Positions 32,401-64,000 of a stretch of DNA of 64,000 bases are shown one piece after another. The DNA lies in the NCBI RefSeq assembly GCF_964355755.1, contig NC_092677.1, positions 16,142,101 through 16,206,100 of the forward strand, in the 5' to 3' direction. Source of the DNA: Antedon mediterranea (taxonomy: Eukaryota > Animalia > Echinodermata). The position numbers and the translations under genes were made by a program. A model generated the notes under the pieces. That model was given only the letters and a program-made list of their open reading frames with translations, was not told the origin of the DNA and did not search any database. Each line of letters opens with the position of its first letter. The stretch's first letter is position 1.

Positions 32401-35400
32401 GCTAGTTCAGAAGAATATAGTTACCACTTGTGACACGCAATGTTATGTTCTTACAGCACGTTGTGTTGAGTGTACATTTTTGCGTTGCATCCTAGTGGGA
32501 ACTAAGTCTTAATAAGAATGTCTCCTAATAAGGGCTGTCTCATAAGAGATGTTCTGCTATATGCTAAAATCATGTGTTTTTTCCTTTCTGTATCACCACT
32601 TCAATATTGTTACTATATTTAATTAGGTATTGATCCTTGTCTATGCACTTTTTTATGAATGATGCAAATATTTATCGCATGGCTATTATAATTTTCTAGT
32701 AAATGCATGTGTCTTTATATACTTCTCATTAGGTTCCTTTACTTCTGCAGTGAATGAAAACACACCAGGCAGTCTGGATGGATTACCGATCGGTGTCCGT
32801 GTTCATGTGAAATCATCTGAAACCATCTCTGTTGAATGGAAACCTCCCGTCATCACTCACGACGTCATCGTTGACTACCTCGTCATGTGTTTAGGCAACA
32901 ACAGCATGTATCATCGTAATATTACAACAAAGAATAATTTGACATTTTATGTAACATTTACCGACTTGGAGCCCGGTATGACATACACGATACTCGTTGC
33001 TGCTCGAATGCGTGATCGCAGTGCAGCGACCCGTAACATGGTCAGGATTGGTCCACCAAGCACTGTTACCATACAACTAAGTAAGATCTACAGCACTGCT
33101 AAGTTATGAACATTTACTATTCATGTTCTGTTGATATACAGTTTGCAGTACACCAAGTATATTAGTTCTGAAAAGACTATCAGAAACAATGCTCTTCTAT
33201 AGCAAGTTTCCATTCACTATTGTTCATGAGAAACAATGCTTTGCTATAGCTAGTTTCAATCCCTCCCACTGTGTGAACTTGCCATTGTTTCTGGCTTTCA
33301 CACCCGTCCCACCCTTTCCACTTATATTCCAAGTTTCCTGGACTTTCTGCATTCTCACTCCGGAGGACGATCAAAGCATATTGATTGAAACGTTGAGAAC
33401 TCAACAGTTCTTTTCAGAACTAATATACGTGGTGTACCGCAAACTGTATATCATTTGATTTTGCCATGCAAACCTTCAAACAATATATATTCGTGTTCTG
33501 TCTATCGCATGCATGTTGTAACTAGCGAAGCATTATTTATTTTTGAGATCATACATATTAATACAGATATATCTGTGTACTGTCATGATGTTATGATGAC
33601 ATTAAATAAAGCCATGTATCTATAATCACATATATTTATTTTGCATTACCGGATGCAAAGATGATTTAATGTGGATTAATATAGGGATTATCTAGAATTT
33701 ACAAGGATTACTTTAGATTTGTTTTATTTTACTATCAGATTGTTTTGTATTATAGTACGGTATAGTTTCAATATTTTGTGTTGTGAAATGTTCTTAAAGG
33801 AAATGTTACATGTACAATATTATTATACTTGAATACCAGTATTCATAAAAACCCACTTTAAGACTGCCACCTTCCATCTTATTATATCAAGTTTCTTGTT
33901 AATCATTTTTAAATATCTTTGATTAAAATTATTTTCATTTCAGATCAAGATCCAGTAATTTTAAATAACAAAAGTGATGAGAGTCTTGTTACCTCACCTC
34001 TGTTCATTGGAATACTTGGAGGCGTCATTAGCATTCTGGCTATTGTTATTTTAACTTTCTGGTTTTTAAAACAAAAGAGGAAAAAGAAACAAGGAATGAA
34101 TTCCAAAGGTAAATAAAATTTCAGATCCGTTGAGAATTCATGTCTTGATCCGTACTTGTCCTTTCCATACTGTTTATTTATTTATTAATTCATTATGTAT
34201 TCTTTTTTATTATGTCCTATTCATTATCATTTCTTTTTTAAAGGCTTGCTCAACACAAGATGTTTTCTTTCTCTTTTAGGGAATCTGCCGTAAAACTCTG
34301 ATCATTATTTTATTGCATTTTACTTTATTATCTTCTATTTCAGAGTTTGTATAAATGTTATGAAACTAAACTCAACTGAATTAACTAAATTATGATTTTA
34401 AAATTATAATTACAAAATTACAAATTGTCCAATTATCAGCCTGGGTCAATGCATGAGGTCACAAAAAGACATAAGTTGAATATTTTAGTACAATTGAATG
34501 GTTTTATTAACATTAAACATGTTTGTATATTGCTAATCAAACTGAAGAATACATCTGTAATCTGTTTTTCCAAGCAGTAATTCAAAACATTAATGTTTAC
34601 TGAGAAATATGATTGATTAAAATATTATTGTCAGTTGTTTTACGTCATGTTTTGGCGATCAAAATTGTAAAATCTGAAATATATTGTACAATTTGAAGAG
34701 AAAGTTAGAAAAATATTCATGTTATGCGATTGGTGTGAAAATGAATTTGAGAATAAAACTATTATATATAGATTTAAAACATTAATGTTTACTCAGAAAT
34801 ATGATTGATTAAAATATTATTTTCAGTGGTTTTTACGTCATGCGATGGTGATGGAAATTGCAGCATTTATAAACCAGCCGTAAGTCAAGTTAGTTCAAAA
34901 GGTCAAGAAGGTCAATGGAACTCACACTCATGGCAGAGAACACAAGTTGATAATCAGGGTAAGAAAACATAGTTTATAACTGTAGTTAAAACATATCTAG
35001 ACAAATTTATCAATTTTCTATTAATTTAAAATTGTAAACACTTCAAATGTACATTTTTAACCATTTATTTTTCTAGAATATACTGTAAATACATATGGTT
35101 TCCACAGCAACTGTGACCACCCAGTTCCTCATGATTGTAGTGCGTCCAATACATGGTCATCGGCAGGTCATTCAACATTAGAAACATTTCACCGTCGTAT
35201 GCAAAAACCGTAAGTGATTTTTTACCTTTTAAAATCAATTTAACAAAAGAAAGTATGCATACAAAAATATTATTCTGTACTAGAATTTATAAGTACCAAT
35301 ATATAACATTCATGAGTTGGTCATGAATTCATGATCCACTTGCACTGTGCCAGGATATGTGCAGCACTAGCAACAATGTTTTTCACTAAAAATTAAAACG

Positions 35401-40464: not shown

Positions 40465-41622
40465 TAATACCGAGTTATTAGTTGTTTTGGCCATTATATC
40501 CGCTTTAAATTAATTATTAAATAATAGACCTTATTCTCTGCTGCAGAGAATATCTTTTAAATACTATTCTACATGGTCCGTCTACTACGTTAGGAGGCCA
40601 TCAACACAATAAACCGTACCTGTACAGTAATTAGACATTTTATATTGGTATGGAAAATAGTACAGTATTTCTATTGGCACAGTTAACCATGCATCAAGTT
40701 CATTTTCCTGTATAGTATAGAAGTGGTTCATTTCATGAACTAGATGCACAGGTTTTTTGCCATGCCGATAGAAAGTAATATACACATGCCGACTGTGACT
40801 TCTCTATTCCATACAAGTTCTAGTTCAAAGAGGTTTATGGAAAAGTATTTATCTACAGAATAATCAGTGAAAAAGTCGCACTGCAAATTTATACTATATC
40901 TTACAAATTGTTTATTTCCAACTTTCTCACAAATCTCTCTTTAAAAATAACACTGATACATATATAGAATGGAACAATAATTAAATTAGTGTATAGCTTT
41001 TAGTGGTTATGAAATTAACAAAGAACTGATTTTAGAATTCCAGATTGCCAACTGCGATATTAAAGTATATATACAGTACCACTAGGTTGAACAGACCCCT
41101 ACATAAAACAATTAAAACTAAAATAAATGTACATGCCTTTACATAGTGTTAACACTCTCGAATAATCATTGCAGTGCTTTGTATGGCAATGTACTGCAAT
41201 GACTAAACGAGTACATTACCATTACTTGACTCTCTGTTTATATCCTGATTAGGCATACATAACAAAAAAAATGTATTACATTATATGCAGATATTTTAAT
41301 TGATGGTAACTATTAGACTGGCACATTATACTCCCATTGTATGAGTATTTAAAAATAAAACTCACTGCTACCTGTCCAAGAACAAGTCTTTAATACCACC
41401 TCAAAATTAGACCCATCGTTTGGTAGTTGTCTAGAGAGATGGGTCAGAATCGGAAGAACACATTGGGATGATATCAATCGTATCAAGAATGGTAACATTC
41501 CATTTGCCTCACTTAAAGCGGTCACATAAGTTTAGGGCAAGTGGAATCGCATTTTTCCATAGCCACAATGCATGGTAAGAAGGCTGTTCATTGTTCATAA
41601 AGTTCAATTGCAAAACATGTCA

Positions 41623-42701
41623 CTATCGCCTCTGTGGAGGTGGTGCACGCATTGGTGGTCGCATTCCCATTGGTGGCATTCCTCTGCCCATAGGTGGTGG
41701 CATCCTACCACCAGGCATCATTCCTGGTCCTCCCATTGGTGGTCTCATGGGTGGTCTTCCAACAAATCCTGGGGGACCTATAAAAATGATAAAATAAAGA
41801 TTAGTTGACATGTCATACAGTAATTGAAAAATGAATACTGCTTTAAAAATCATCGCGTTTATCCGAATAGAAACGTAATAAACAGTTTCTTACCTGGCGC
41901 CCTCTGTGGTGCCATCATGCTTTGAGCTGGTCCGCCAACACCTCTTACTGGTCCTGAAAGACCAGCTGGTGCAGCTGAATGATGTGGATGTGTAGGAACC
42001 CCTCTACCTGCCGCTCTTCCCATTCCTGGTCCTCTACCGCCTCCTGCAACTGGCACACGCGGCCCTTTATCTTTCACTGGCGGCCCTTCAACAGTCATAG
42101 AAACTAAGTGTTCGCCTCGTAGTAATACAAGACCTAGAACCCTCTTCTCTTCCCTGTCAGATGATTTTGCCTTTGCCCGTACTTTCCTGAATTCTTCACA
42201 ATCACCAAGGATGACGTTCATGTGTTTGTCGAATGCGAGGAATGTACCAATGAAGATGCGGCCATCTTGGAGGACAACACGCATCCTGTAATTAATGTGT
42301 TGAATCATCTTGTTACTTTTGCCCTGCACCTAAAAAATACAAAAAAAAGTATGGTTAAAAATAAATAACATCATTTTAACATCTAAAAAATATGCTAACT
42401 AGGCCTACCACCATTGACATTGTAATGGTGGAATATTAAGCTATATGATAAATGTAGGTACAGTAGTACAAATTTACAAACAAGTCGGCTTGCCTAACTT
42501 AGCCTAGGCCTAGTAGGAGGCTTAACCCTGTCCAGAGGCTTAGCACAGCCCGGTTAAGCTGATCAAACCGGCTTGGTAAAAGTGGCCTAGGTAGCCCTCA
42601 GAATCGGATAGAATATTACAGAATAGTTGATAGTTCCATAAAAATAAACCCACTGAAATAGGTTGTAATATATAACAAACAAATTAACACATTATTACCA
42701 T
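41623..42701 (-). CDS. SNRPB: Small nuclear ribonucleoprotein-associated protein B (SmB), 197 aa; exons 42701-42699 (ATG only), 42329-41894, 41777-41623
   Basis: [70 protein letters not shown] Sm fold, GRG repeats and PPMGMRPP tail; canonical GT-AG introns; ATG-only first coding exon as in vertebrate SNRPB. Confidence 0.97.
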
Positions 42702-42729
42702 GTTTGCAAATTTGATGCCTTCCGATTTT

Positions 42730-43050: not shown

Positions 43051-43573
43051 GTATGTATTTATTTGTTATATAAACTAGAAATAATAAGTAACATTTCCTA
43101 GGCCGGTGTCGCCTCGGTGACTTGTTTTTTAGAATATCATTCACTGTATGCATCCATATGGATGGACTGTGTGGTGGTGGACGGGCGCTGCTGCCGCTTG
43201 TATTGACCGTGCCTAGGCCTAGGTTACACCAAAGAATATATAGAACAAGAATGAGTAATCCGTGGTTTTCCCTGTAACAGTGATTTATATAATAAGTCAG
43301 GGTATATACAACTTTTTGTGATGGTGACTTGTTTTTTAGAATATTATATAGGCCTATATCAATTATCATTAGGCCTAGCCTAGTAGCAGGCTAATTTGTT
43401 CAACATGCATGGAGTAAATTAGTAAAGTAAAGAATTATTATTCTTTACTCCATGATTTGTCATAATAACGAACTGGCTGCCTCTACGCGCCTAGTCGTAA
43501 ATCCAATCCTGATTCTTTTCTATATTCATCTACTGTGCCTGTGTTTACGTGTTTTCACAAAGGATAGTTTGAT

Positions 43574-43740
43574 ACCGGCGTGAAGTTGGTTACTTATTCC
43601 TTATTCGATATTCAATTTTTTTTGTGAAGTTGGATCCTTATTCGACATTCACATTCACATGTATGGGGCGCAATGTGTAATAATATTTTAATTAAATGAT
43701 TTTATACTTACGGCTTAGATTAACTAGGGCTATGATTTAT
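43574..43740 (+). repeat. Left unique terminal inverted repeat
   Basis: Reverse complement of 63778-63944 with one small local difference (CAATGTGTAATAATA vs CAATATGTGTAATA). Confidence 0.93.
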
Positions 43741-46700
43741 AGGGCTATAACTTCGTTATAAACGGCATGGACCGGGATGACGATACATGGGTTCGGGCTA
43801 GTAGGGTCCAGTAGTTTCAGAAAAATACCACTTGCCCCGGTCCATGCCGTCTAGCTGTCATTTTACGCCATTTTAAAACCTTACTACAATTTAACGTTTT
43901 TAAAAATAAAAAATGCAATATAACCGGATGATTTATAGGGCTATAATTACGTGATAAACGGCATGGACCGGGATGACGATACATGGGTTGGGGCTAGTAG
44001 GGTCCAGTAGTTTCAGAAAAATACCACTTGACCCGGTCCATGCCGTCTAGCTGCCATTTCACGCCATTTTAAAACCTTACTACAATTTAACGTTTTTATA
44101 AAAAAATGCAATATAACCTAATGAAATATAGGGCTATAATTACGTTATAAACGGCATGGACCGGGATGACGATACATGGGTTGGGGCGAGTAGGGTCCAG
44201 TCATTTAAGAAAAATACCTCTTACCCAGGTCCATGCCGTCTAGCTGTCATTATACGCCATTTTAAAACGTTACTACAATTTAAGGTTTTCATAAAAAATG
44301 CAATGTAAACATATGATTTATAGGGCTATAATTACGTTATAAACGGCATGGACCGGGATGACGATACATGGGTTGGGGCAAGTAGGGTCCAGTCAATTCA
44401 GAAAAATACCTCTTACCCCGGTCCATGCCGTCTAGCTATCATTTTACGCCATTTTAAAACGTTACTACAATTTAACGTTTTTTTTAATAAAAAATGCAAT
44501 ATAACCGAATGGTTTATAGGGCTATAATTACGTTATAAACGGCATGGACCGGAATGACGATACATGGGTTGGGGCTAGTAGGGTCCAGTTGTTTCAGAAA
44601 AATACCACTTGACCCGGTCCATGCCGTCTAGCGGCCATTTCACGCCATTTTAAAACGTTACTACAATTTAACTTTTTTTATAAAAAATGCAACATAACCG
44701 GATGATATATAGGGCTATAATTACGTTATAAACGGCATGGACCGGGATGACGATACATGGGTTGGTGCGAGTAGGGTCCAGTCATTATAGAAAAGTACCA
44801 CTTGCCCCGGTCCATGCCGTCTAGCTGTCATTTTACGCCATTTTAAAAGGTTACTACAATTTAAGGTTTTTAAAAATAAAAAATGCACTATAAACGTATG
44901 ATTTATAGGGCTATAATTACGTTATAAACGGCATGGACCGGGATGACGATACATCGGTTGGGGCAAGTAGGGTCCAGTCAATTCAGGAAATACCACTTGC
45001 CCCGGTCCATGCCGTCTAGCTATCATTTTACGCCATTTCAAAACGTTACTACAATTTAACGTTTTTTAAAATAAAAAATGCAATATAACAGGATGATATA
45101 TAGGGCTATAATTACGTTATAAACGGCATGGACCGGGATAACGATACATGGGTTGGGGCGAATAGGGTCCATTCATTTCAGAAAAATACCACTTGCCCCG
45201 GTCCATGCCGTCTAGCTGTCATTTTAAGCCATTTTAAAACGTTACTGTTACTACAATTTAATTTTTTTTAAATAAAAAATGCAATATAACCGGATGATTT
45301 ATAGGGCTATAATTACGTGATAAACGGCATGGACCGGGATGACGATACATGGGTTGGGGCTAGTAGGGTCCTGTCGTTTCAGAAAAATACCACTTGCCTC
45401 GGTCCATGCCGTCTAGCTGTCATTTTACGCCATTTTAAAACGTTACTACAATTTAACGTTTTTTTAAATAAAAAATTCAATATAACAGGATGATATATAG
45501 GGCTATAATTACGTTATAAACGGCATGGACCGGAATGACGATACATGGGTTGGGGCGAGTAGGGTCCAGTCATTTCAGAAAAATACCACTTGCCCCGGTC
45601 CATGCCGTCTAGCTCTCATTTTACGCCATTTTAAAACGTTACCGGTCCTACAATTTAATTTTTAAAAATAAAAAATGCAATATAACCGAATGATTTATAG
45701 GGCTATAAATACGTTATAAACGGCATGGACCGGGATGACGATACATGGGTTGGGGCTAGAAGGGTCCAGTTATTTCAGAAATATACCTCTTACCCCGGTC
45801 CATGCCGTCTAGCTGTCATTATACGCCATTTTAAAACGTTACTACAATTTAAGGTTTTCATAAAAAATGCAATGTAAACATATGATTTATAGGGCTATAA
45901 TTACGTTATAAATGGCATGGACCGGGATGACGATACATGGGTTGGGGCGAGTAGGGTCCAGTCAATTCAGAAAAATACCACTTGCCCCGGTCCATGCCGT
46001 CTAGCTATCATTTTACGCCATTTTAAAACGTTACTACAATTTAACGTTTTTTTTAAATAAAAAATGCAATATAACCGAATGGTTTATAGGGCTATAATTA
46101 CGTTATAAACGGCATGGACCGGAATGACGATACATGGGTTGGGGCTAGTAGGGTCCAGTTGTTTCAGAAAAATACCACTTGACCCGGTCCATGCCGTCTA
46201 GCGGCCATTTCACGCCATTTTAAAACGTTACTACAATTTAACTTTTTTTATAAAAAATGCAACATAACCGGATGATATATAGGGCTATAATTACGTTATA
46301 AACGGCATGGACCGGGATGACGATACATGGGTTGGTGCGAGTAAGGTCCAGTCATTATAGAAAAGTACCACTTGCCCCGGTCCATGCCGTCTAGCTGTCA
46401 TTCTACGCCATTTTAAAAGGTTACTACAATTTAAGGTTTTTAAAAATAAAAAATGCACTATAAACGTATGATTTATAGGGCTATAATTACGTTATAAACG
46501 GCATGGACCGGGATGACGATACATCGGTTGGGGCAAGTAGGGTCCAGTCAATTCAGGAAATACCACTTGCCCCGGTCCATGCCGTCTAGCTATCATTTTA
46601 CGCCATTTCAAAACGTTACTACAATTTAACGTTTTTTTAAATAAAAAATGCAATATAACAGGATGATATATAGGCCTATAATTACGTTATAAACGGCATG

Positions 46701-49700
46701 GACCGGGATAACGATACATGGGTTGGGGCGAATAGGGTCCATTCATTTCAGAAAAATACCACTTGCCCCGGTCCATGCCGTCTAGCTGTCATTTTAAGCC
46801 ATTTTAAAAGGTTACTACAATTTAAGGTTTTTAAAAATAAAAAATGCACTATAAACGTATGATTTATAGGGCTATAATTACGTTATAAACGGCATGGACC
46901 GGGATGACGATACATCGGTTGGGGCAAGTAGGGTCCAGTCAATTCAGGAAATACCACTTGCCCCGGTCCATGCCGTCTAGCTATCATTTTACGCCATTTC
47001 AAAACGTTACTACAATTTAACGTTTTTAAAATAAAAAATGCAATATAAACGCATGATATAATAGGGCTATAATTACGTTATAAACGGCATGGACCGGGAT
47101 GACGATACATGGGTTGGGGCGAGTAGGGTCCAGTCATTTCAGAAAAATACGACTTGCCCCGGTCCATGCCGTCTAGCTGTCATTATACGACATTTTAAAA
47201 CGTTACTACAATTTAAGTTTTTTTAAATAAAAAATGCAATATAACCAAATGATTTATAGGGATATAATTACGTTATAAACGGCATGGACCGGGATGACGA
47301 TACATGGGTTGGGGCGAGTAGGGTCCAGTCATTTTAGAAAAATACCACTTGCCCCGGTCCATGCCGTCTAGCTGTCAATTTACGCCATTTTAAAACGTTA
47401 CTACAATTTAAGGTTTTCATAAAAAATGCAATGTAAACGTATGATTTATAGGGCTATAATTACGTTATAAACGGCATGGACCGGGATGAAGATACATGGG
47501 TTGGGGCAAGTAGTGTCCAGTCAATTCAGAAAAATACCACTTGCCCCGGTCCATGCCGTCTAGCTGTCATTTTACGCCATTTTAAAACGTTACTACAATT
47601 TAACGTTTTTAAAATAAAAAATGCAATATAAACGCATGATATAATAGGGCTATAATTACGTTATAAACGGCATGGACCGGGATGACGATACATGGGTTGG
47701 GGCCAGTATGGTCCAGTTGTTTCAGAAAAATACCACTTGCTCCGGTCCATGCCGTCTAGCTGTCATTTTACGCCATTTTAAAACGTTACTAAAATTTACG
47801 TTTTTTTAAATAAAAAGTGCAATATAACCGAATGATTTTTAAGGCTATAATTACGTTATAAACGGCATGGACCGGGATGACGATACATGGGTTGGGGCAA
47901 GTATGGTCCATTCGTTTCAGAAAAATACCACTTGCCCTGGTCCATGCCGTCTAGCTGCCATTTTACGCCATTTTAAAACGTTACTACAATTTAAGGTTTT
48001 CATAAAAAATGCAATGTAAACGTATGATTTATAGGGCTATAATTACGTTATAAACGGCATGGACCGGGATTACGATACATGGGTTGGGGCGAGTAGCGTC
48101 CAGTCATTTCAGAGAAATACCACTTGCCCCGGTCCATGCCGTCTAGCTGTCATTTTACGCCATTTTAAAACGTTACTACAATTTAAGGTTTTCATAAAAA
48201 ATGCAATGTAAACGTATGATTTATAGGGCTATATTTACGTTATAAACGGCATGGACCGGGATGAAGATACATGGGTTGGGGCAAGTAGGGTCCAGTCAAT
48301 TCAGAAAAATACCACTTGCCCCGGTCCATCCCGTCTAGCTATCATTTTACGCCATTTTAAAACGTTACTAAAATTTACGTTTTTTAAAATAAAAAATGCA
48401 ATATAACCGAATGATTTATAGGGCTATAATTACGTTATAAACGGCATGGACCGGGATGACGATACATGGGTTGGGGCCAGTATGGTCCAGTTGTTTCAGA
48501 AAAATACCACTTGCTCCGGTCCATGCCGTCTAGCTGTCATTTTACGCCATTATAAAACGTTACTACAATTTAACGTTTATAAAATAAAAAATGCAATATA
48601 AACGCATGATATAATAGGGCTATAATTACGTTATAAACGGCATGGACCGGGATGACGATACATGGGTTGGGGCGAGTAGGGTCCAGTCATTTCAGAAAAA
48701 TACGACTTGCCCCAGACCATGCCGTCTAGCTGTCATTTTACGACATTTTAAAACGTTACTACAATTTAAGTTTTTTAAAATAAAAAATGCAATATAACCG
48801 AATGATTTATAGGGATATAATTACGTTATAAATGGCATGGACCGGGATTACGATACATGGGTTGGGGCGAGTAGCGTCTAGTCATTTCAGAGAAATACCA
48901 CTTGCCCCGGTCCATGGCGTCTAGCTGTTATTTTACGCCATTTTAAAACGTTACGACAATTTAAGGTTTTCATAAAAAATGCAATGTAAACGTATGATTT
49001 ATAGGGCTATAATTACGTTATAAACGGCATGGACCGGGATGAAGATACATGGGTTGGGGCAAGTAGGGTCCAGTCAATTCAGAAAAATACCACTTGCCCC
49101 GGTCCATGCCGTCTAGCTATCATTTTACGCCATTTTAAAACGTTACTAAAATTTACGTTTTTTAAAATAAAAAATGCAATATAACCGAATGATTTATAAG
49201 GCTATAATTACGTTATAAACGGCATGGACCGGGATGACGATACATGGGTTGGGGCAAGTATGGTCCATTCGTTTCAGAAAAATACCAGTTGCTCCGGTCC
49301 ATGCCGTCTAGCTGTCATTTTACGCCATTATAAAACGTTACTACAATTTAACGTTTTTAAAATAAAAAATGCAATATAAACGCATGATATAATAGGGCTA
49401 TAATTACGTTATAAACGGCATGGACCGGGATGACGATACATGGGTTGGGGCGAGTAGGGTCCAGTCATTTCAGAAAAATACGACTTGCCCCGGTCCATAC
49501 CGTCTAGCTGTCATTTTACGACATTTTAAAACGTTACTACAATTTAAGTTTTTTTAAATATAAAATGCAATATAACCGAATGATTTATAGGGATATAATT
49601 ACGTTATAAACGGCATGGACCGGGATGACGATACATGGGTTGGGGCTAGTAGGGTCCAGTCGTTTTAGAAAAATACCACTTGTCCGGTCCATGCCGTCTA

Positions 49701-50436
49701 GCTGCCATTTTACGCCATTTTAAATCGTTACTACAATTTAACGTTTTTATAAAAAATGCAATATAACCGGATGGTATATAGGGCTATAATTACGTTATAA
49801 ACGGCATGGACCGGGATGACAATACATGAGTTAGAGCGAGTAGGGTCCAGTCATTTCAGAAAATTACCTCTAGCCCCGGTCCATGCCGTCTAGCTGTCAT
49901 TTTACGCCATTTTAAAACGTTACTACAATTTAAGATTTTTTTTAAAATAAAAAATGCAATATAACCGAATTATTTATAGGGCTATAATTACGTTATAAAC
50001 GGCATGGACCGGGATGACGATACATGGGTTGGGGCTAGTAAGGTCCAGTCGTTTCAGTAAAATACCACTTGACCCGGTCCATGCCGTCTAGCGGCCATTT
50101 CACGCTATTTTAAAACGTTACTACAATTTAACTTTTTTATAAAAAATACAATATAACCGGATGATATAATTATAGGGCTATAATTACGTTATAAACGGCA
50201 TGGACCGGGATGACGATACATGGGTTGGTGCGAGTAGGGTCCAGTCATTATAGAAAAGTACCACTTGCCGTCTAGTTGTCATTTTACGCCATTTTAAAAC
50301 GTTACTACAATTTAACGTTTTTAAAAATAAAAAATGCACTATAAACGTATGGTTTATAGGGCTATAATTACGTTATAAACGCCATGGACCGGGATTACGA
50401 TACATTGATTGGGGCAAGTAGGGTCCAGTCATTTCA
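43740..50436 (+). repeat. Left arm: ~34 copies of a ~195-bp monomer
   Basis: AGGGCTATAA at 43741, 43937, 44130... (period 193-198). Confidence 0.97.
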
Positions 50437-53400
50437 CCCACGTATCGTCATCCCGGTCCATGCCGTTTATAACGTAATTATAGCCCTATAAATCATGCGT
50501 TTATATTGCTTTTTTTTTTTTAAAGTTCAATTGTAGTAACGTTTTAAAATGGCGTAAAATGGCAGCTAGACGGTATGGACAGGGGCAAGTGGTCTTTTTC
50601 TATAATGACTGGACCCTACTCGCCCCAACCCATGTCGTCATCCCGGTCCATGCCGTTTATAACGTAATTATAGCCCTATATATCATCCGTTTATATTGCA
50701 TTTTTTATAAAAACGTTAAATTGTAGTAACGTTTTAAAATGTCGTAAAATCGCAGCTAGACGGCATGGACCGGGGCAAGTGGTATTTTTCTGAAACGACT
50801 GGACCCTACTAGCCCCAACCCATTTGTCGTCATCCCGGTCCATGCCGTTTATAACGTAATAATAGCCCTATAAATCATGTGTTTATATTCCATTTTTTAT
50901 TTTAAAAAACGTTAAATTGTAGTAACGTTTTAAAATGGCGTAATATGAAAGCTAGACGGCATGGACCGGGGCAAGTGGTATTTTTCGAAATGACTGGACC
51001 CTACTCGCCCCAACCCATATATCGTCATCCCTGTCCATGCAGTTTATAACGTAATTATAGCCCTGTAAATCATATGTTTATATTGCATTTTTTAATTTAA
51101 AAATCGTTAAATTGTAGTAACGTTTTAAAATGGCGTAAAATGACAGCTAGACGGCATGGACCGGGGCAAGTGGTATTTTTCTGAAACGACTGGACCCTGC
51201 TAGCCCCAACCCATGTATCGTCATCCCGGTCCATACCGTTTATAACGTAATTATAGCCCTATATATCATCCGGTTATATTGCATTTTTTATAAAAAAAAA
51301 ATTAAATTGTAGTAACATTTAAAATGGCGTAAAATGACAGCTAGACGGCATGGACCGGGGTAAGAGGTATTTTTTTTAAATGACTGGACCCTACTCGTCC
51401 CAACCCATGTATCGTCATCCCGGTCCATGCCGTTTATAACGTAATTATAGCCCTATATATCATCCGGTTATATTGCATTTTTTATAAAAACGTTAAATTG
51501 TAGTAAGGTTTTAAAATGGCGTGAAATGGCAAGTAGACAGCATGGACCGGGTAAAGTGGTATTTTTCTGAAACTACTGGACCCTACTAGCCCCAACCCAT
51601 GTATCGTCATCCCGGTCCATGCCGTTTATAACTTAATTATAGCCTTATAAATCATTCGGTTATATTGCATTTTTTATTTAAAAAAATTAAATTGTAGTAC
51701 CGGTAACGTTTTAAAATGGCGTAAAATGACAGCTAGACGGCATGGACCGGGAAAAGTGGTATTGTTATGCAATGACTGGACCCGACTCGACCCAACCCAT
51801 GTATCGTCATCCCGGTCCATGCCGTTTATAACGTAATTATAGCCCTATATATCATTCGGTTATATTGCATTTTTTATAAAAAAAAACGTTAAATTTTAGT
51901 AACGTTTTATAATGGCGTTAAATGATAGCTAGACGGCATGGACCGGGGCAAGTGGTATTTTTCTGAAATGACTAGACCCTACTCGCCCCAACCCATGTAT
52001 CGTCATCCCGGTCCATGCCGTTTATAACGTAATTATAGGCCTATATGTACGTCATCCGCTTATATTCTATTTTTCATTTTAAAAAAACTTAAATTGTAGT
52101 AACGTTTTAAAATGGCGTAAAATGGCAGCTACACGGCATGGACCGGGGCAAGTGGTATTTTTCTGAAACGACAGGAACCTACTAGCCCCAACCCATGTAT
52201 CGTCATCCCGGTCCATGCCGTTTATAACGTAATTATAGCCCTAAATATCTTCCGGTTAAATTGCATTTTTTATAAAAAAAAAACTTAAATTGTAATAACA
52301 TTTTAAAATGGCGTAAAATGGCAGCTAGACGGTATGGACCGGGGCAAGTGGTACTTTTCTATAATGACTGGATCCTACTCGCACCAACCCATATTCGTCA
52401 TCCCGGTCCATGCCGTTTATAACGTAATTATAGCCCTATATATCATCCGGTTATATTGCATTTTTTATAAAAAAGTTAAATTGTAGTAACGTTTTAAAAT
52501 GGCGTGAAATGGCCGCTAGACGGCATGGACCGGGTCAAGTGGTATTTTTCTGAAACGACTGGACCCTACTAGATCCAACCCATGTATCGTCATCTCGGTC
52601 CATGCCGTTTATAACGTAATTATAGACCTATACATCATTCGGTTATATTGCATTTTTTATAAAAAAAAAAACGTTAAATTGTAGTAACGTTTTAAAATGG
52701 CGTAAAATGATAGCTAGACGGCATGGACCGGGGCAAGTGGTATTATTCTGAATTGACTGGACCCTACTTGCCCCAACCCATGTATCGTCATCCCGGTCCA
52801 TGCCGTTTATAACGTAATTATAGACCCTTAAATCATTCGGTTATATTGCATTTTTTATATAAAAAAAACCGTTAAATTGTAGTAACGTTTTAAAATGGCG
52901 TAAAATGATAGCTAGACGGCATGGACCGGGGCAAGTGGTATTTTTCTGAATTGACTGGACCCTACTTGCCCCAACCCATGTATCGTCATCCCGGTCCATG
53001 CCGTTTATAACGTAATTATAGCCCTATAAATCATATGTTTACATTACATTTTTTATGAAAACCTTAAATTGTAGTAACGTTTTAAAATGGCGTAAAATGA
53101 CAGCTAGACGGCATGGACCGGGGTAAGAGGTATTTTTCTTAAATGACTGGACCCTACTCGCCCCAACCCATGTATCGTCATCCCGGTCCATGCCGTTTAT
53201 AACGTAATTATAGCCCTATATTTCATCAGGTTATATTGCATTTTTTATAAAAACGTTTAAATTGTAGTAAGGTTTTAAAATGGCGTGAAATGGCAGCTAG
53301 ACGGCATGGACCGGGTCAAGTGGTATTTTTCTGAAACTACTGGACCCTACTAGCCTCAACCCATGTATCGTCATCCCGGTCTATGCCGTTTATAACGTAA

Positions 53401-56400
53401 TTATAGCCCTATAAATCATTCGGTTATATTGCATTTTGTATTTAAAAAAAAATTAAATTGTAGTACCGGTAATGTTTTGAAATGGCGTAAAATGGCAGCT
53501 AGACGGCATGGACCGGGGCAAGTGGTATTTTTCTGAAACGACAGGACCCTACTAGCCCCAACCCATGTATCGTCATCCCGGTCCATGCCGTTTATAACGT
53601 AATTATAGCCCTATAAATCATACGGTTATATTGCATTTTTTATAAAAAAAAAACTTAAATTGTGGTAACGTTTTAAAATGGCGTAAAATGGAAGCTAGAC
53701 GGCATGGACAGGGACAAGTGGTATATTTCTAAAACGACTGGACCCTACTAGCCCCAATCCATGTATCTTTATCCCGGTCCATGCCGTTTATAACGTAATT
53801 ATAGCCCTATAAATCATTCGGTTATATTGCATTTTTTATAAAAAAAAGACGTTAAATTGTATTAATGTTTTAAAATGGCGTAAAATGATAGCTAGACGGC
53901 ATGGACCGGGGCAAGTGGTATTTTTCTGAATTGACTGGACCCTACTTGCCCCAACCCCGTGTATCGTCTTCCCGGTCCATGCCGTTTATAACGTAATTAT
54001 AGCCCTATAAATCATACGTTTACATTGCATTTTTTATGAAAAGCTTAAATTGTAGTCACGTTTTAAAATGGCGTAAAATGACAGCTAGACGGCATGGACC
54101 GGGGTAAGATGTATTTTTCTTAAATGACTGGACCCTACTCGCCCCAACCCATGTATCGTCATCCCGGTCCATGCCGTTTATAACGTAATTATAGCCCTAT
54201 TATATCATGCGTTTATATTGCATTTTTTATTTTTAAAACGTTAAATTGTAGTAACGTTTTAAAATGGAGTAAAATGACAGCTAAACGGCATGGACCGGGG
54301 CAAGTGGTATTTTTCCGAAATGACTAGACCCTACTCATCCCAACCCATGCATCGTCATCCCGGTCCATGCCGTTTATAACGTAATTATAGCCCTATAAAT
54401 CATACGTTTATAGTGCATTTTTTATTTTTAAAAACCTTAAATTGTAGTAACCTTTTAAAATGGCGTAAAATGACAGCTAGACGGCATGGACCGGGGCAAG
54501 TGGTACTTTTCTATAATGACTGGACCCTACTCGCACCAACCCATGTATCGTCATCCCGGTCCATGCCGTTTATAACGTAATTATAGCCCTATATATCATC
54601 CGGTTATGTTGCATTTTTTATAAAAAAAGTTAAATTGTAGTAACGTTTTAAAATGGCGTGAAATGGCCGCTAGACGGCATGGACCGGGTCAAGTGGTATT
54701 TTTCTGAAAAAACTGGACCCTACTAGCCCCAAACCATGTATCGTCATTCCGGTCCATGCCGTTTATAACGTAATTATAGCCCTATAAATCATATGTTTAC
54801 ATTGCATTTTTTATGAAAACCTTAAATTGTAGTAACGTTTTAAAATGGCGTATAATGACAGCTAGACGGCATGGACCGGGTCAAGTGGTATTTTTCTGAA
54901 ACTACTGGACCCTACTAGCCCCAACCCATGTATCGTCATCCCGGTCCATGCCGTTTATAACGTAATTATAGCCCTATAAATCATTCGGTTATATTGCATT
55001 TTGTATTTAAAAAAATTAAATTGTAGTAACAGTAACGTTTTAAAATGGCTTAAAATGACAGCTAGACGGCATGGACCGGGGCAAGTGGTATTTTTCTGAA
55101 ATGAATGGACCCTATTCGCCCCAACCCATGTATCGTTATCCCGGTCCATGCCGTTTATAACGTAATTATAGCCCTATATATCATCCTGTTATATTGCATT
55201 TTTTATTTAAAAAAACGTTAAATTGTAGTAACGTTTTGAAATGGCGTAAAATGATAGCTAGATGGCATGGACCGGGGCAAGTGGTATTTCCTGAATTGAC
55301 TGGACCCTACTTGCCCCAACCGATGTATCGTCATCCGGGTCCATGCCGTTTATAACGTAATTATAGCCCTATAAACCATTCGGTTATATTGCATTTTTTA
55401 TTTAAAAAAACGTTAAATTGTAGTAACGTTTTAAAATGGCGTAAAATGATAGCTAGACGGCATGGACCGGGGCAAGTGGTATTTTTCTGAATTGACTGGA
55501 CCCTACTTGCCCCAACCCATGTATCATCATCCTGGTCCATGCCGTTTATAACGTAATTATAGCCCTATAAATCATATGTTTACATTGCATTTTTTATGAA
55601 AACCTTAAATTGTAGTAACGTTTTAAAATGGCGTATAATGACAGCTAGACGGCATGGACCGGGGTAAGAGGTATTTTTCTTAAATGACTGGACCCTACTC
55701 GCCCCAACCCATGTATCGTCATCCCGGTCCATGCCGTTTATAACGTAATTATAGCCCTATATTTCATTAGGTTATATTGCTTTTTTTTATAAAAACGTTA
55801 GATTGTAGTAAGGTTTTAAAATGGCGTGAAATGGCAGCTAGACGGCATGGACCGGGTCAAGTGGTATTTTTCTGAAACTACTAGACCCTACTAGCCCCAA
55901 CCCATGTATCGTCATCCCGGTCCATGCCGTTTATAACGTAATTATAGCCCTATAAATCATTCGGTTATATTGCATTTTGTATTTAAAAAAATTAAATTGT
56001 AGTAACAGTAACGTTTTAAAATGGCTTAAAATGACAGCTAGACGGCATGGACCGGGGCAAGTGGTATTTTTCTGAAATGAATGGACCCTACTCGCCCCAA
56101 CCCATGTATCGTTATCCCGGTCCATGCCGTTTATAACGTAATTATAGCCCTATATATCATCCTGTTATATTGCATTTTTTATTTAAAAAAACGTTAAATT
56201 GTAGTACCGTTTTGAAATGGCGTAAAATGATAGCTAGACGGCATGGACCGGGGCAAGTGATATTTTTCTGAATTGACTGGACCCTACTTGCCTCAACCGA
56301 TGTATCGTCATCCCGGTCCATGCCGTTTATAACGTAATTATAGCCCTATAAATCATTCGGTTATATTGCATTTTTTATATAAACAAAACGTTAAATTGTA

Positions 56401-59400
56401 GTAACGTTTTAAAATGGCGTAAAATGATAGCTAGACGGCATGGACCGGGGCAAGTGGTATTTTTCTGAATTGACTGGACCCTACTTGCCCCAACCCATGT
56501 ATCGTCATCCCGGTCCATGCCGTTTATAACGTAATTATAGCCCTATACATCAAACGTTTACATTGCATTTTTTATGAAAACCTTAAATTGTAGTAACGTT
56601 TTAAAATGGCGTAAAATGACAGCTAGACGGCATGGACCGGGGTAAGAGGTATTTTTCTGAAATGACTGGACACTACTCGCCCCAACCCATGTATCGTCAT
56701 CCCGGTCCATGCCGTTTATAACGTAATTATAGCCCTATAAATCATACGTTTACATTGCATTTTTTATGAAAACCTTAAATTGTAGTAACGTTTTAAAATG
56801 GCGTAAAATGACAGCTAGACGGCATGGACCGGGGTAAGAGGTATTTTTCTGAAATAACTGGACCCTACTCGCCCCAACCCATGTATCGTCATCCCGGTCT
56901 ATGCCGTTTATAACGTAATTATAGCCCTATATTTTATCCATTTATATTGCAATTTTTATAAAAACGTGAAATTGTAGTAAGGTTTTAAAATGGCGTGAAA
57001 TGGCAGCTAGACGGCATGGACCGGGGTAAGAGGTATTTTTCTGAAATAACTGGACCCTACTAGCCCCAACCCATGTATCGTCATCCCGGTCCATGCCGTT
57101 TATAACGTATTTATAGCCCTATAAATCATTCGGTTATATTGCATTTTTTATTTTTAAAAATTAAATTGTAGGACCGGTAACGTTTTAAAATGGCGTAAAA
57201 TGACAGCTAGACGGCATGGACCGGGGCAAGTGGTATTTTTCTGAAATGACTGGACCCTACTCGCCCCAACCCATGTATCGCCATTCCGGTCCATGCCGTT
57301 TATAACGTAATTATAGCCCTATATATCATTCGGTTATATTGCATTTTTTATTTAAAAAAACGTTAAATTGTAGTAACGTTTTAAAATGGCGTAAAATGAC
57401 AGCTAGAAGGCATGGACCGAGGCAAGTGGTATTTTTCTGAAACGACAGGACCCTACTAGCCCCAACCCATGTATCGTCATGCCGGTCCATGCCGTTTATC
57501 ACGTAAATATAGCCCTATAAATCATCCGGTTATATTGCATTTTTTATTTAAAAAAAATTAAATTGTAGTAACAGTAACGTTTTAAAATGGCTTAAAATGA
57601 CAGCTAGACGGCATGGACCGGGGCAAGTGGTATTTTTCTGAAATGAATGGACCCTATTCGCCCCAACCCATGTATCGTTATCCCGGTCCATGCCGTTTAT
57701 AACGTAATTATAGGCCTATATATCATCCTGTTATATTGCATTTTTTATTTAAAAAAACGTTAAATTGTAGTAACGTTTGGAAATGGCGTAAAATTATAGC
57801 TAGACGGCATGGACCGGGGCAAGTGGTATTTCCTGAATTGACTGGACCCTACTTGCCCCAACCGATGTATCGTCATCCCGGTCCATGCCGTTTATAACGT
57901 AATTATAGCCCTATAAATCATACGTTTATAGTGCATTTTTTATTTTTAAAAACCTTAAATTGTAGTAACCTTTTAAAATGGCGTAGAATGACAGCTAGAC
58001 GGCATGGACCGGGGCAAGTGGTACTTTTCTATAATGACTGGACCCTACTCGCACCAACCCATGTATCGTCATCCCGGTCCATGCCGTTTATAACGTAATT
58101 ATAGCCCTATATATCATCCGGTTATGTTGCATTTTTTGTAAAAAAAGTTAAATTGTAGTAACGTTTTAAAATGGCGTGAAATGGCCGCTAGACGGCATGG
58201 ACCGGGTCAAGTGGTATTTTTCTGAAACAACTGGACCCTACTAGCCCCAACCCATGTATCGTCATTCCGGTCCATGCCGTTTATAACGTAATTATAGCCC
58301 TATAAACCATTCGGTTATATTGCATTTTTTATTTAAAAAAAACGTTAAATTGTAGTAACGTTTTAAAATGGCGTAAAATGATAGCTAGACGGCATGGACC
58401 GGGGCAAGTGGTATTTTTCTGAATTGACTGGACCCTACTTGCCCCAACCCATGTATCGTCATCCCGGTCCATGCCATTTATAACGTAATTATAGCCCTAT
58501 AAATCATATGTTTACATTGCATTTTTTATGAAAACCTTAAATTGTAGTAACGTTTTAAAATGGCGTATAATGACAGCTAGACGGCATGGACCGGGGTAAG
58601 AGGTATATTTCTGAAATAACTGGACCCTACTAGCCCCAACCCATGTATCGTCATCCCGGTCCATGCCGTTTATAACGTATTTATAGCCCTATAAATCATT
58701 CGGTTATATTGCATTTTTTATTTTTAAAAATTAAATTGTAGGACCGGTAACGTTTTAAAATGGCGTAAAATGACAGCTAGACGGCATGGACCGGGGCAAG
58801 TGGTATTTTTCTGAAATGACTGGACCCTACTCGCCCCAACCCATGTATCGTCATTCCGGTCCATGCCGTTTATAACGTAATTATAGCCCTATATATCATC
58901 CTGTTATATTGAATTTTTTTTTTTTTAAAACGTTAAATTGTAGTAACGTTTTAAAATGGCGTAAAATGACAGCTACACGGCATGGACCGAGGCAAGTGGT
59001 ATTTTTCTGAAACGACAGGACCCTACTAGCCCCAACCCATGTATCGTCATCCCGGTCCATGCCGTTTATCACGTAATTATAGCCCTATAAATCATCCGGT
59101 TATATTGCATTTTTTATTTAAAAAAAATTAAATTGTAGTAACAGTAACGTTTTAAAATGGCTTAAAATGACAGCTAGACGGCATGGACCGGGGCAAGTGG
59201 TATTTTTCTGAAATGAATGGACCCTATTCGCCCCAACCCATGTATCGTTATCCCGGTCCATGCCGTTTATAACGTAATTATAGCCCTATATATCATCCTG
59301 TTATATTGCATTTTTTATTTAAAAAAACGTTAAATTGTAGTAACGTTTTGAAATGGCGTAAAATGATAGCTAGACGGCATGGACCGGGGCAAGTGGTATT

Positions 59401-62400
59401 TCCTGAATTGACTGGACCCTACTTGCCCCAACCGATGTATCGTCATCCCGGTCCATGCCGTTTATAACGTAATTATAGCCCTATAAATCATACGTTTATA
59501 GTGCATTTTTTATTTTTAAAAACCTTAAATTGTAGTAACCTTTTAAAATGGCGTAGAATGACAGCTAGACGGCATGGACCGGGGCAAGTGGTACTTTTCT
59601 ATAATGACTGGACCCTACTCGCACCAACCCATGTATCGTCATCCCGGTCCATGCCGTTTATAACGTAATTATAGCCCTATATATCATCCGGTTATGTTGC
59701 ATTTTTTGTAAAAAAAGTTAAATTGTAGTAACGTTTTAAAATGGCGTGAAATGGCCGCTAGACGGCATGGACCGGGTCAAGTGGTATTTTTCTGAAACAA
59801 CTGGACCCTACTAGCCCCAACCCATGTATCGTCATTCCGGTCCATGCCGTTTATAACGTAATTATAGCCCTATAAACCATTCGGTTATATTGCATTTTTT
59901 ATTTAAAAAAAACGTTAAATTGTAGTAACGTTTTAAAATGGCGTAAAATGATAGCTAGACGGCATGGACCGGGGCAAGTGGTATTTTTCTGAATTGACTG
60001 GACCCTACTTGCCCCAACCCATGTATCGTCATCCCGGTCCATGCCATTTATAACGTAATTATAGCCCTATAAATCATATGTTTACATTGCATTTTTTATG
60101 AAAACCTTAAATTGTAGTAACGTTTTAAAATGGCGTATAATGACAGCTAGACGGCATGGACCGGGGTAAGAGGTATATTTCTGAAATAACTGGACCCTAC
60201 TAGCCCCAACCCATGTATCGTCATCCCGGTCCATGCCGTTTATAACGTATTTATAGCCCTATAAATCATTCGGTTATATTGCATTTTTTATTTTTAAAAA
60301 TTAAATTGTAGGACCGGTAACGTTTTAAAATGGCGTAAAATGACAGCTAGACGGCATGGACCGGGGCAAGTGGTATTTTTCTGAAATGACTGGACCCTAC
60401 TCGCCCCAACCCATGTATCGTCATTCCGGTCCATGCCGTTTATAACGTAATTATAGCCCTATATATCATCCTGTTATATTGAATTTTTTTTTTAAAAAAA
60501 CGTTAAATTGTAGTAACGTTTTAAAATGGCGTAAAATGACAGCTAGACGGCATGGACCAAGGCAAGTGGTATTTTTCTGAAACGACAGGACCCTACTAGC
60601 CCCAACCCATGTATCGTCATCCCGGTCCATGCCGTTTATCACGTAATTATAGCCCTATAAATCATCCGGTTATATTGCATTTTTTATTTAAAAAAAATTA
60701 AATTGTAGTAACAGTAACGTTTTAAAATGGCTTAAAATGACAGCTAGACGGCATGGACCGGGGCAAGTGGTATTTTTCTGAAATGAATGGACCCTATTCG
60801 CCCCAACCCATGTATCGTTATCCTGGTCCATGCCGTTTATAACGTAATTATAGCCCTATATATCATCCTGTTATATTCCATTTTTTATTTAAAAAAACGT
60901 TAAATTGTAGTAACGTTTTGAAATGGCGTAAAATGATAGCTAGACGGCATGGACCGGGGCAAGTGGTATTTCCTGAATTGACTGGACCCTACTTGCCCCA
61001 ACCGATGTATCGTCATCCCGGTCCATGCCGTTTATAACGTAATTATAGCCCTATAAATCATACGTTTATAGTGCATTTTTTATTTTTAAAAACCTTAAAT
61101 TGTAGTAACCTTTTAAAATGGCGTAAAATGACAGCTAGACGGCATGGACCGGGGCAAGTGGTACTTTTCTATAATGACTGGACCCCACTCGCACCAACCC
61201 ATGTATCGTCATCCCGGTCCATGCCGTTTATAACGTAATTATAGCCCTATATATCATCCGGTTATGTTGCATTTTTTATAAAAAAAGTTAAATTGTAGTA
61301 ACGTTTTAAAATGGCGTGAAATGGCCGCTAGACGGCATGGACCGGGTCAAGTGGTATTTTTCTGAAACAACTGGACCCTACTAGCCCCAACCCATGTATC
61401 GTCATTCCGGTCCATGCCGTTTATAACGTAATTATAGCCCTATAAACCATTCGGTTATATTGCATTTTTTATTAAAAAAAACGTTAAATTGTAGTAACGT
61501 TTTAAAATGGCGTAAAATGATAGCTAGACGGCATGGACCGGGGCAAGTGGTATTTTTCTGAATTGACTGGACCCTACTTGCCCCAACCCATGTATCGTCA
61601 TCCCGGTCCATGCCGTTTATAACGTAATTATAGCCCTATAAATCATATGTTTACATTGCATTTTTTATGAAAACCTTAAATTGTAGTAACGTTTTAAAAT
61701 GGCGTATAATGACAGCTAGACGGCATGGACCGGGGTAAGAGGTATTTTTCTTAAATGACTGGACCCTACTCGCCCCAACCCATGTATCGTCATCCCGGTC
61801 CATGCCGTTTATAACGTAATTATAGCCCTATATTTCATTAGGTTATATTGCATTTTTTTATAAAAACGTTAAATTGTAGTAAGGTTTTAAAATGGCGTGA
61901 AATGGCAGCTAGACGGCATGGACCGGGTCAAGTGGTATTTTTCTGAAACTACTGGACCCTACTAGCCCCAACCCATGTATCGTCATCCCGGTCCATGCCG
62001 TTTATAACGTAATTATAGCCCTATAAATCATTCGGTTATATTGCATTTTGTATTTAAAAAAATTAAATTGTAGTAACAGTAACGTTTTAAAATGGCTTAA
62101 AATGACAGCTAGACGGCATGGACCGGGGCAAGTGGTATTTTTCTGAAATGAATGGACCCTACTCGCCCCAACCCATGTATCGTTATCCCGGTCCATGCCG
62201 TTTATAACGTAATTATAGCCCTATCATCCTGTTATATTGCATTTTTTATTTAAAAAAACGTTAAATTGTAGTAACGTTTTGAAATGGCGTAAAATGATAG
62301 CTAGACGGCATGGACCGGGGCAAGTGGTATTTTTCTGAATTGACTGAACCCTACTTGCCCCAACCGATGTATCGTCATCCCGTTCCATGCCGTTTATAAC

Positions 62401-63780
62401 GTAATTATAGCCCTATAAATCATTCGGTTATATTGCATTTTTTATATAAAAAAAACGTTAAATTGTAGTAACGTTTTAAAATGGCGTAAAATGATAGCTA
62501 GACGGCATGGACCGGGGCAAGTGGTATTTTTCTGAATTGACTGGACCCTACTTGCCCCAACCCATGTATCGTCATCCCGGTCCATGCCGTTTATAACGTA
62601 ATTATAGCCCTATACATCATACGTTTACATTGCATTTTTTATGAAAACCTTAAATTGTAGTAACGTTTTAAAATGGCGTAAAATGACAGCTAGACGGCAT
62701 GGACCGGGGTAAGAGGTTTTTTCTGAAATGACTGGACCCTACTCGCCCCAACCCATGTATCGTCATCCCGGTCCATGCCGTTTATAACGTAATTATAGCC
62801 CTATAAATTATACGTTTACATTGCATTTTTTATGAAAACCTTAAATTGTAGTAACGTTTTAAAATGGCGTATAATGACAGCTAGACGGCATGGACCGGGG
62901 TAAGAGGTATTTTTCTGAAATAACTGGACCCTACTCGCCCCAACCCATGTATCGTCATCCCGGTCCATGCCGTTTATAACGTAATTATAGCCCTATATTT
63001 CATCCGGTTATATTGCAATTTTTATAAAAACGTGAAATTGTAGTAAGGTTTTAAAATGGCGTGAAATGGCAGCTAGACGGCATGGACCGGGGTAAGAGGT
63101 ATTTTTCTGAAATAACTGGACCCTACTAGCCCCAACCCATGTATCGTCAACCCGGTCCATGCCGTTTATAACGTATTTATAGCCCTATAAATCATTCGGT
63201 TATATTGCATTTTTTATTTTTAAAAATTAATTTGTAGGACCGGTAACGTTTTAAAATGGCGTCAAATGACAGCTAGACGGCATGGACCGGGGCAAGTGGT
63301 ATTTTTCTGAAATGACTGGACCCTACTCGCCCCAACCCATGTATCGTCATTCCGATCCATGCCGTTTATAACGTAATTATAGCCCTATATATCATTCTGT
63401 TATATTGAATTTTTTATTTAAAAAAACGTTAAATTGTAGTAACGTTTTAAAATGGCATAAAATGACAGCTAGACGGCATGGACCGAGGCAAGTGGTATTT
63501 TTCTGAAACGTCAGGACCCTACTAGCCCCAACCCATGTATCGTCATCCCGGTCCATGCCGTTTATCACGTAATTATAGCCCTATAAATCATCCGGTTATA
63601 TTGCATTTTTTATTTTTAAAAACGTTAAATTGTAGTAAGGTTTTAAAATGGCGTAAAATGACAGCTAGACGGCATGGACCGGGGCAAGTGGTATTTTTCT
63701 GAAACGACTGGACCCTACTAGCCCGAACCCATGTATCGTCATCCCGGTCCATGCCGTTTATAACGAAGTTATAGCCCTAT
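50437..63780 (-). repeat. Right arm: ~68 copies of the same monomer, inverted
   Basis: TTATAGCCCT (reverse complement) recurs with the same period from ~50478 to ~63780. Confidence 0.97.
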
Positions 63781-63944
63781 AAATCATAGCCCTAGTTAAT
63801 CTAAGCCGTAAGTATAAAATCATTTAATTAAAATATTACACATATTGCGCCCCATACATGTGAATGTGAATGTCGAATAAGGATCCAACTTCACAAAAAA
63901 AATTGAATATCGAATAAGGAATAAGTAACCAACTTCACGCCGGT
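63778..63944 (-). repeat. Right unique terminal inverted repeat
   Basis: Mirror of 43574-43740, followed immediately by the TSD TAGTTTGAT. Confidence 0.93.
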
Positions 63945-64000
63945 TAGTTTGATAATATTTCTATATTTAAAGACACCTTCCCTACAATTTGTGACGTTTT

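Follow-up and report, generated by a model that had tools for sequence, protein, structure and literature searches.

Introduction

Among described transposons with satellite-like ends, the Rehavkus elements of Tribolium come closest to the locus reported here. Their inverted termini comprise a terminal inverted repeat (TIR) and up to 50 tandem repeats of 164 to 167 bp (PMC12581902, PMC10218199), and their target site duplication (TSD) is 9 bp long (PMC6446971). They have been proposed as both sources and vectors of satellites (PMC12581902, PMC10218199), and repeats orthologous to theirs have grown into arrays of 80.5 kb (PMC12581902). Rehavkus is related to Mutator-like elements (MULEs), which are marked by a MULE-type DDE transposase enclosed by the termini in question; in Rehavkus, this enzyme has a PHD finger. 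Here, we analyze a 64,000-nucleotide stretch of the genome of the echinoderm Antedon mediterranea (NC_092677.1, positions 16,142,101 to 16,206,100; hereafter, the window), in which a foldback element of 20,371 bp spans positions 43574 to 63944. Rehavkus-1_TC (9.5 kb) and Rehavkus-3_TC have a central part, whereas the present element has none. It further differs from Rehavkus in its ~103 monomers, its 20.4-kb length, its higher-order repeats, and its host. For the longest copies of Rehavkus-3_TC, the comparison draws on figure legends rather than on sizes or cores.

Other systems share parts of this anatomy. Tetris/TIR-220 of Drosophila virilis also has a unique flanking domain followed by ~220-bp repeats, an 8- to 10-bp TSD, and no open reading frame (ORF). 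Its TIRs, however, reach 1.7 kb with three to four repeats, it has an inner domain and a middle, and its long arrays lie outside complete elements (PMC4079207). FB of Drosophila melanogaster is likewise non-coding and has an end sequence, a 9-bp duplication, and mirrored repeat blocks that differ in number between the two sides, but its repeats are 27 to 31 bp long and arranged in blocks around a ~320-bp middle, and the whole is a few kilobases long (PMC7642927). The TfSat01 satellite of Tribolium freemani (median array, 11.8 kb) has inverted subarrays of unequal length that meet at a pair of truncated monomers, leaving a 9- to 27-bp loop. It is, however, centromeric and alternates with another satellite, and the accessible text of the paper mentions neither a tip nor a TSD (PMC12581902). 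Muta1 of Aedes aegypti, a MULE foldback element with an 8- to 9-bp TSD and subterminal repeats that bind transposase, offers a model for the mechanism, but it is autonomous and only 3.2 kb long, with a 145-bp TIR and 12-bp repeats (PMC5225508, PMC5499845). The foldback TIRs of Tm1 have been tied to a Phantom MULE (PMC3169594), and the centromeric layout described in PMC13652916 differs from that of the present element.

The architecture of the element is thus already known from Rehavkus, Tetris, and FB, and an earlier note on this DNA, which suggested a possibly undescribed family and did not name Rehavkus, overstated its novelty: Tribolium Rehavkus, whose ~165-bp repeats number as many as 50, is in print (PMC12581902, PMC10218199). 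What is new here is the absence of a middle domain, the size, the ~103 monomers with higher-order repeats inside intact ends, and the host. No description of this particular family was found in the literature on sea-urchin TU elements, crinoid repeats, or TSD-flanked inverted satellite arrays, most subscription journals and Repbase lying outside the search.

A satellite block that is a single insertion

We find that an apparent 20-kb satellite block is a single insertion of a real, mobile, multicopy foldback transposon without genes. The 9-mer TAGTTTGAT, previously noted as a perfect TSD, directly abuts both ends of the element (Table 1); its chance of occurring at any one given position is 1.3e-5. 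Both 9-mers are followed by an A, making a 10-bp duplication formally possible. A 9-bp duplication is favored because public contigs stop exactly at the right end, position 63944. Inside the duplications, the first 160 bp and the last 159 bp match each other in inverted orientation at 98.1% identity (two substitutions and one indel, all confined to 43675–43680), and no further match to these tips occurs anywhere in the window. The tips are therefore unique and inverted, as had been claimed, at a length of ~160 bp rather than ~170 bp. They begin with the bases A-C-C. A ~27-bp subterminal motif is present twice in the left tip, at 43580 and 43624 (44 bp apart), and in the whole window it is found at four tip positions only.

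Between the tips, Tandem Repeats Finder identified a 196-bp unit in 34.4 copies at 43732–50436 and in 68.3 copies at 50436–63787, in opposite orientations, in agreement with the ~34 and ~68 opposed monomers counted before. A separate monomer split yielded 34 full monomers and 1 partial monomer in the left arm, and 68 full monomers and 1 partial monomer in the right arm (L1 to L34 and R1 to R68). The arms meet at ~50436, where truncated monomers of 79 and 51 bp overlap by one base, with no foreign DNA. No stop-free stretch in the six frames of the whole element exceeds 80 amino acids, the longest being exactly 80. The absence of an internal domain or coding core, a further observation of the earlier note, is therefore upheld, the centre being a loop of ~28 nt. 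The element has the long, modular inverted repeats of a foldback transposon, in which tandem repeats follow a unique outer domain, together with the unequal repeat numbers per arm, the TSD, and the dispersed copies (9-bp duplication, tips with other flanks, and an empty site) by which such transposons are recognized.

Table 1. Positions of the element, its parts, the neighboring gene, and a related tip (window coordinates unless a contig is named).
Feature	Position	Strand	Description
SmB/SNRPB gene (Sm/LSM)	~41620-42702	-	
Left copy of 9-bp TSD	43565-43573	+	TAGTTTGAT, directly outside 43574
Left unique tip of inverted repeat, ~160 bp	43574-43733	+	inverted match to right tip
Outer left arm	43732-46671	+	L1-L15; 8-mer higher-order repeat types
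Inner left arm	46672-50436	+	L16-L34 and 79-bp partial; arm-specific, weak 4-mer higher-order repeat
Centre	50409-50436	.	junction of truncated, oppositely oriented monomers, ~28 nt unpaired; no middle domain
Inner right arm	50437-54383	-	R49-R68 and 51-bp partial; most diverged monomers
Outer right arm	54384-63787	-	R1-R48; 8-mer higher-order repeat (~1570 bp)
Right unique tip	63786-63944	-	inverted match to left tip
Right copy of 9-bp TSD	63945-63953	+	TAGTTTGAT, directly outside 63944
42-bp tip homologue	L001, 689-745		followed by 17-bp inverted copy of part of the motif; no monomers

Copies elsewhere and an empty site

Public contigs from the four runs that contain this stretch (X5 to X8; one organism, one sample label, and one study) include further ends of the family; runs X2 to X4, with shares of 0.05 to 0.08, were left out of the comparison. 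The tip contig of X8 stops exactly at 63944. In X6, X7, and X8, a contig of 1.56 to 1.58 kb carries the tip with a 41-bp deletion, departs from the window at 63944, and continues into ~1.46 kb of other DNA, while two further contigs per run diverge after 63945 into dissimilar flanks. Because tip contigs end or diverge at this position, they both fix the end of the element and show other insertion sites. In addition, three contigs of X6 track the left flank to 43574, and their next 15 letters match 63955–63969 at 14 of 15 positions. These contigs are an empty site with a single copy of the 9-mer; whether they represent an allele or a paralogue, the second copy of the 9-mer arose through the insertion. 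The boundaries, the multicopy tip, the other flanks, and the empty site together bear out the proposal of one discrete, TSD-flanked insertion of a multicopy family.

Family size can be gauged loosely from tip depth. The tip contig has a depth of 7582, 786, and 833 in X5, X6, and X7, against 247.5, 53.6, and 58.7 for the contig of the neighboring SmB gene, a ratio of 31, 15, and 14, respectively. There are perhaps some 7 to 15 two-ended elements, although the assembly resource itself cautions that contig depth is not copy number. The summed depth of the monomers, 134 to 435 times that of the tip, is unusable for copy number. At the element's own site, no listed contig spans the tip, the duplication, and the flank, and depth at 63947–63953 is 8 to 54. 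This hole is consistent with the insertion being absent from X5 to X8, yet proves nothing.

Related tips occur more widely. Some contigs of X5 to X8 share just the outer ~40 bp of the tip. The only metagenome match found, contig L001, is 93% identical over the outermost 42 bp and then runs on into unrelated DNA; translation of the DNA to the left of this tip, outside the element, gave broken frames only. Judged by its sequence, the L001 tip represents a related family in another genome, and related families appear to share the terminus that a transposase would read. Another organism (X1) has monomer and tip pieces among the five pieces compared, which is weak evidence on its own.

Young outer arms and old inner arms

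The two arms resemble each other at their outer ends only. L1 and R1 differ by one change, and L2–L15 and R10–R23 differ at 15 of 2735 sites (0.55%; 99.45% identical). Within the right arm, R2–R12 are repeated at R33–R43 with 1.5% divergence, and the 8-mer blocks are 0 to 2 changes apart. Toward the centre, the distance of each monomer to its nearest relative grows in both arms (Spearman, 0.72 and 0.61). L17–L30 have a weak 4-mer period of their own, R49–R68 have no period and mostly one to five private changes per monomer, and the 12 innermost mirror pairs differ by 16 to 31 changes each, so that the inner arms are not mirror images. The outer arms are thus young and common to both sides, while the inner arms are old and arm-specific. 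Overall, the 102 full monomers have a mean pairwise divergence of 8.2%.

The unlike inner arms also bear on the assembly. A fold-back read chimera would give mirror arms, and the divergence of the innermost pairs excludes it. No listed contig bridges the two junctions of the site, which would fit a misjoined satellite, but both ends are anchored by a true duplication with a single-copy form in public contigs. We therefore regard an assembly or read artefact as highly improbable, although the number of monomers within the near-identical 8-mer blocks could be off.

The insertion appears to be recent, since the right tip is identical to the high-depth family contigs of the four runs (63800–63944 compared) and the outer arms diverge by only 0.55%; the left tip has three private changes relative to these contigs. 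Provided that the insertion is no older than its ends, only monomers within ~1.5% of each other could have arisen in place. At a threshold of three or fewer differences, there are 30 and 39 monomer types when the arms are taken separately (13.8 kb) and 56 types overall (11.3 kb). Because these 56 to 69 types remain, at least 11 to 14 kb likely arrived with the insertion, unless conversion brought in monomers or changed the ends of an old insertion. Base composition gives no sign of CpG decay within the element: the CpG observed/expected ratio is 1.31, against 0.52 in the depleted flank, and transition alleles are found at 17 of 22 CpG sites versus 38 of 56 other C/G sites. Changes from the consensus across the element comprise 606 transversions and 408 transitions.

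Alternatively, a small element might have inserted and its arms then expanded in place, or arrays elsewhere might have supplied their monomers through conversion or gap repair; either way, the long form would not itself be mobile. The near-identity of the right-arm 8-mer blocks indicates that some growth was very recent. In-place growth is also the reading given for CDSTR177 in Galileo (PMC13553610) and for TIR-220 (PMC4079207), and long cargo lowers transposition (PMC6431247). Simple duplication, however, cannot yield 56 to 69 types at a mean divergence of 8.2% beside tips and outer arms that are 99.5% alike, short of an old insertion with recently converted ends. We consider in-place growth to be quite unlikely.

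The centre raises the question of a lost core. The element could have jumped with a core, possibly a transposase gene, that was later lost here or collapsed in assembly, making gene-less giants dead ends. The junction between the arms looks like one end-joining event, and TIR-only deletion derivatives are common in Galileo (PMC3573991). Conversely, the private changes of the inner monomers should let the centre assemble uniquely, and nothing dates the junction in either direction. On balance, we find a core at the time of the jump doubtful.

The 196-bp monomer

Each monomer has a GC-rich half (56% GC) and an AT-rich half (25%), and a 15-bp inverted repeat, its two copies 59 bp apart, flanks the GC-rich half. 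Sites with a variant in at least five copies are scarce in this inverted motif (2 of 30, versus 48 of 166 in the rest of the monomer; P = 0.011), whereas singletons arise there at an equal rate (0.53 per site, versus 0.48 elsewhere). This is the pattern expected of a selected binding site, a modest signal that may reflect recognition of the monomer. Several points weigh against such recognition. Tested against the GC-rich loop alone, the inverted motif gives P = 0.07; 2.3% of window pairs are equally clean; and the monomer copies underlying these statistics are not independent. Moreover, the tip motif is not found in the monomer. A tip-like motif inside the monomer was rejected because its best match (9 of 12) is equaled by 23 of 300 shuffles. 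In L34 (50174–50357), 12 bp between two short direct repeats are missing, and with them most of one arm of the inverted motif.

The monomer folds with a z score of −2.4. None of 60 altered pairs in its hairpin is compensated, giving no sign of selection on pairing as such. An Rfam search of 43400–44600 returned 15 matches, all generic hairpins far under the gathering score, and an array of structured RNA genes was ruled out because no family reached that score. The monomers had also been called nucleosome-sized, which holds for their length; the 10-bp periodicity of AA/TT/TA does not reach significance, since 55 of 1000 shuffles gave one of equal strength.

Superfamily and mechanism

The 9-bp duplication and the layout point to the Mutator/Rehavkus superfamily and to mobilization in trans. 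The TSD falls within the 8- to 11-bp range of Rehavkus and other MULEs, and a TIR with subterminal tandem repeats is present at both termini; by analogy, membership in this group seems likely. The same anatomy might instead be moved by an enzyme of another superfamily (Merlin, P/Galileo, or unclassified). Merlin gives 8- to 9-bp TSDs and can contain tandem repeats, but its termini start with GG, and it was rejected because the tip here begins with AC. Duplications of Galileo and P elements are 7 to 8 bp long, which the 9-bp duplication here does not fit. Helentron/DINE-type satellite carriers have no TSD and hold their array in a single orientation; with a TSD and inverted arrays, the present element is not one of them. 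Several superfamilies have given rise to foldback structures (PMC3169594), and a tip that starts with A would suit another enzyme, but the Rehavkus layout fits closely, and we consider a different superfamily unlikely.

We conclude that this locus is probably one insertion of a multicopy, gene-less foldback transposon with 196-bp arrays in its arms, which likely arrived recently by cut-and-paste, as a unit of 11 to 20 kb, through a Mutator/Rehavkus-type transposase encoded elsewhere. Several observations tell against this conclusion. No transposase is linked to the tip, and no ORF over 80 amino acids lies within the element. Most arthropod MULE termini begin with G or C, which is a tendency (PMC13359780), and the tip here begins with A; Rehavkus is listed from arthropods and annelids only in the accessible part of the source (PMC6446971); and cut-and-paste efficiency declines with length (PMC6431247). 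Other paired copies with different 9-bp TSDs and an empty site with a single 9-mer had been proposed as checks. Tips do occur in other DNA, but the contigs hold ends only, with no second full-length copy and no second TSD among them. The three empty-site contigs come from one of the four runs among the matches listed, and their flank (43425–43578) is itself a low-copy repeat, so that the empty site may be a paralogue rather than an allele. If it is, then youth would rest on sequence identity alone.

In the mechanism that we propose, the transposase would recognize the outermost ~42 bp of the tip together with the paired subterminal motif; the 15-bp inverted motif of each monomer may be a further target. 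In Muta1, more subterminal repeats raise excision (PMC5499845). Starting from a small number of subterminal repeats, the arms would have lengthened through unequal exchange, eight and four monomers at a time, and the middle domain would have been lost in one deletion that joined two truncated monomers. The outer ~3 kb would be kept alike by arm-to-arm conversion or by repair from a sister copy; arm-to-arm homogenization has been proposed for Galileo TIRs (PMC3573991). The giant palindrome may be made tolerable by the divergence near its centre. Such divergence stabilizes long palindromes.

More tentatively, and with less confidence than doubt, we suggest that the element belongs to a core-less, palindromic family of mobile satellites whose gene-less 20-kb form itself transposes. 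The monomer, with its conserved 15-bp inverted motif, would then provide a putative lattice of transposase-binding sites that enables long jumps. Such a family would drop arrays with higher-order repeats beside genes, its tips homogenized and its centre diverged.

Genomic setting

The element lies upstream of the SmB gene, which is not interrupted. About 870 bp separate the likely start codon from the left end of the element, and this ATG probably forms a separate first exon. The SmB protein is 98% identical to that of the crinoid Anneissia japonica, the next matches being at most 78% identical (best 120 of 1143 matches), which points to a feather star as the likely host. Upstream of the gene lie a high-copy repeat (43194–43347) and the low-copy repeat at 43425–43578, in or at the edge of which the foldback element is inserted. 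Beyond the right end, a very high-copy repeat starts with TTAA at 63967–64000, and public contigs show it next to many different sequences; from family traits, we take it to resemble a Kolobok-type non-autonomous element.

Elsewhere in the window, exons at ~26000–36800 (+ strand) encode fibronectin type III domains and a tail rich in proline and glutamine, and likely belong to a cell-surface receptor gene. Other tandem arrays are found at 3909–5771 (164 bp × 11.4, at 98%), 1008–2036 (71 bp × 14.6), and 30895–31422 (22 bp × 25).

Implications

Transposition is considered one of the ways in which satellites spread between chromosomes, but in most published cases, arrays within elements are short and long arrays lie outside. 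In the present case, a complete array of 100 monomers with higher-order structure is enclosed by ends that are both intact and young and by a perfect duplication. The insertion lies upstream of an essential splicing gene, 870 bp from its start codon. Whole satellite arrays can thus likely travel as transposon cargo. With perhaps 7 to 15 elements, the family is small enough for the jumping of long arrays, the homogenization of inverted arms, and any role of the monomer in transposition to be resolved copy by copy.

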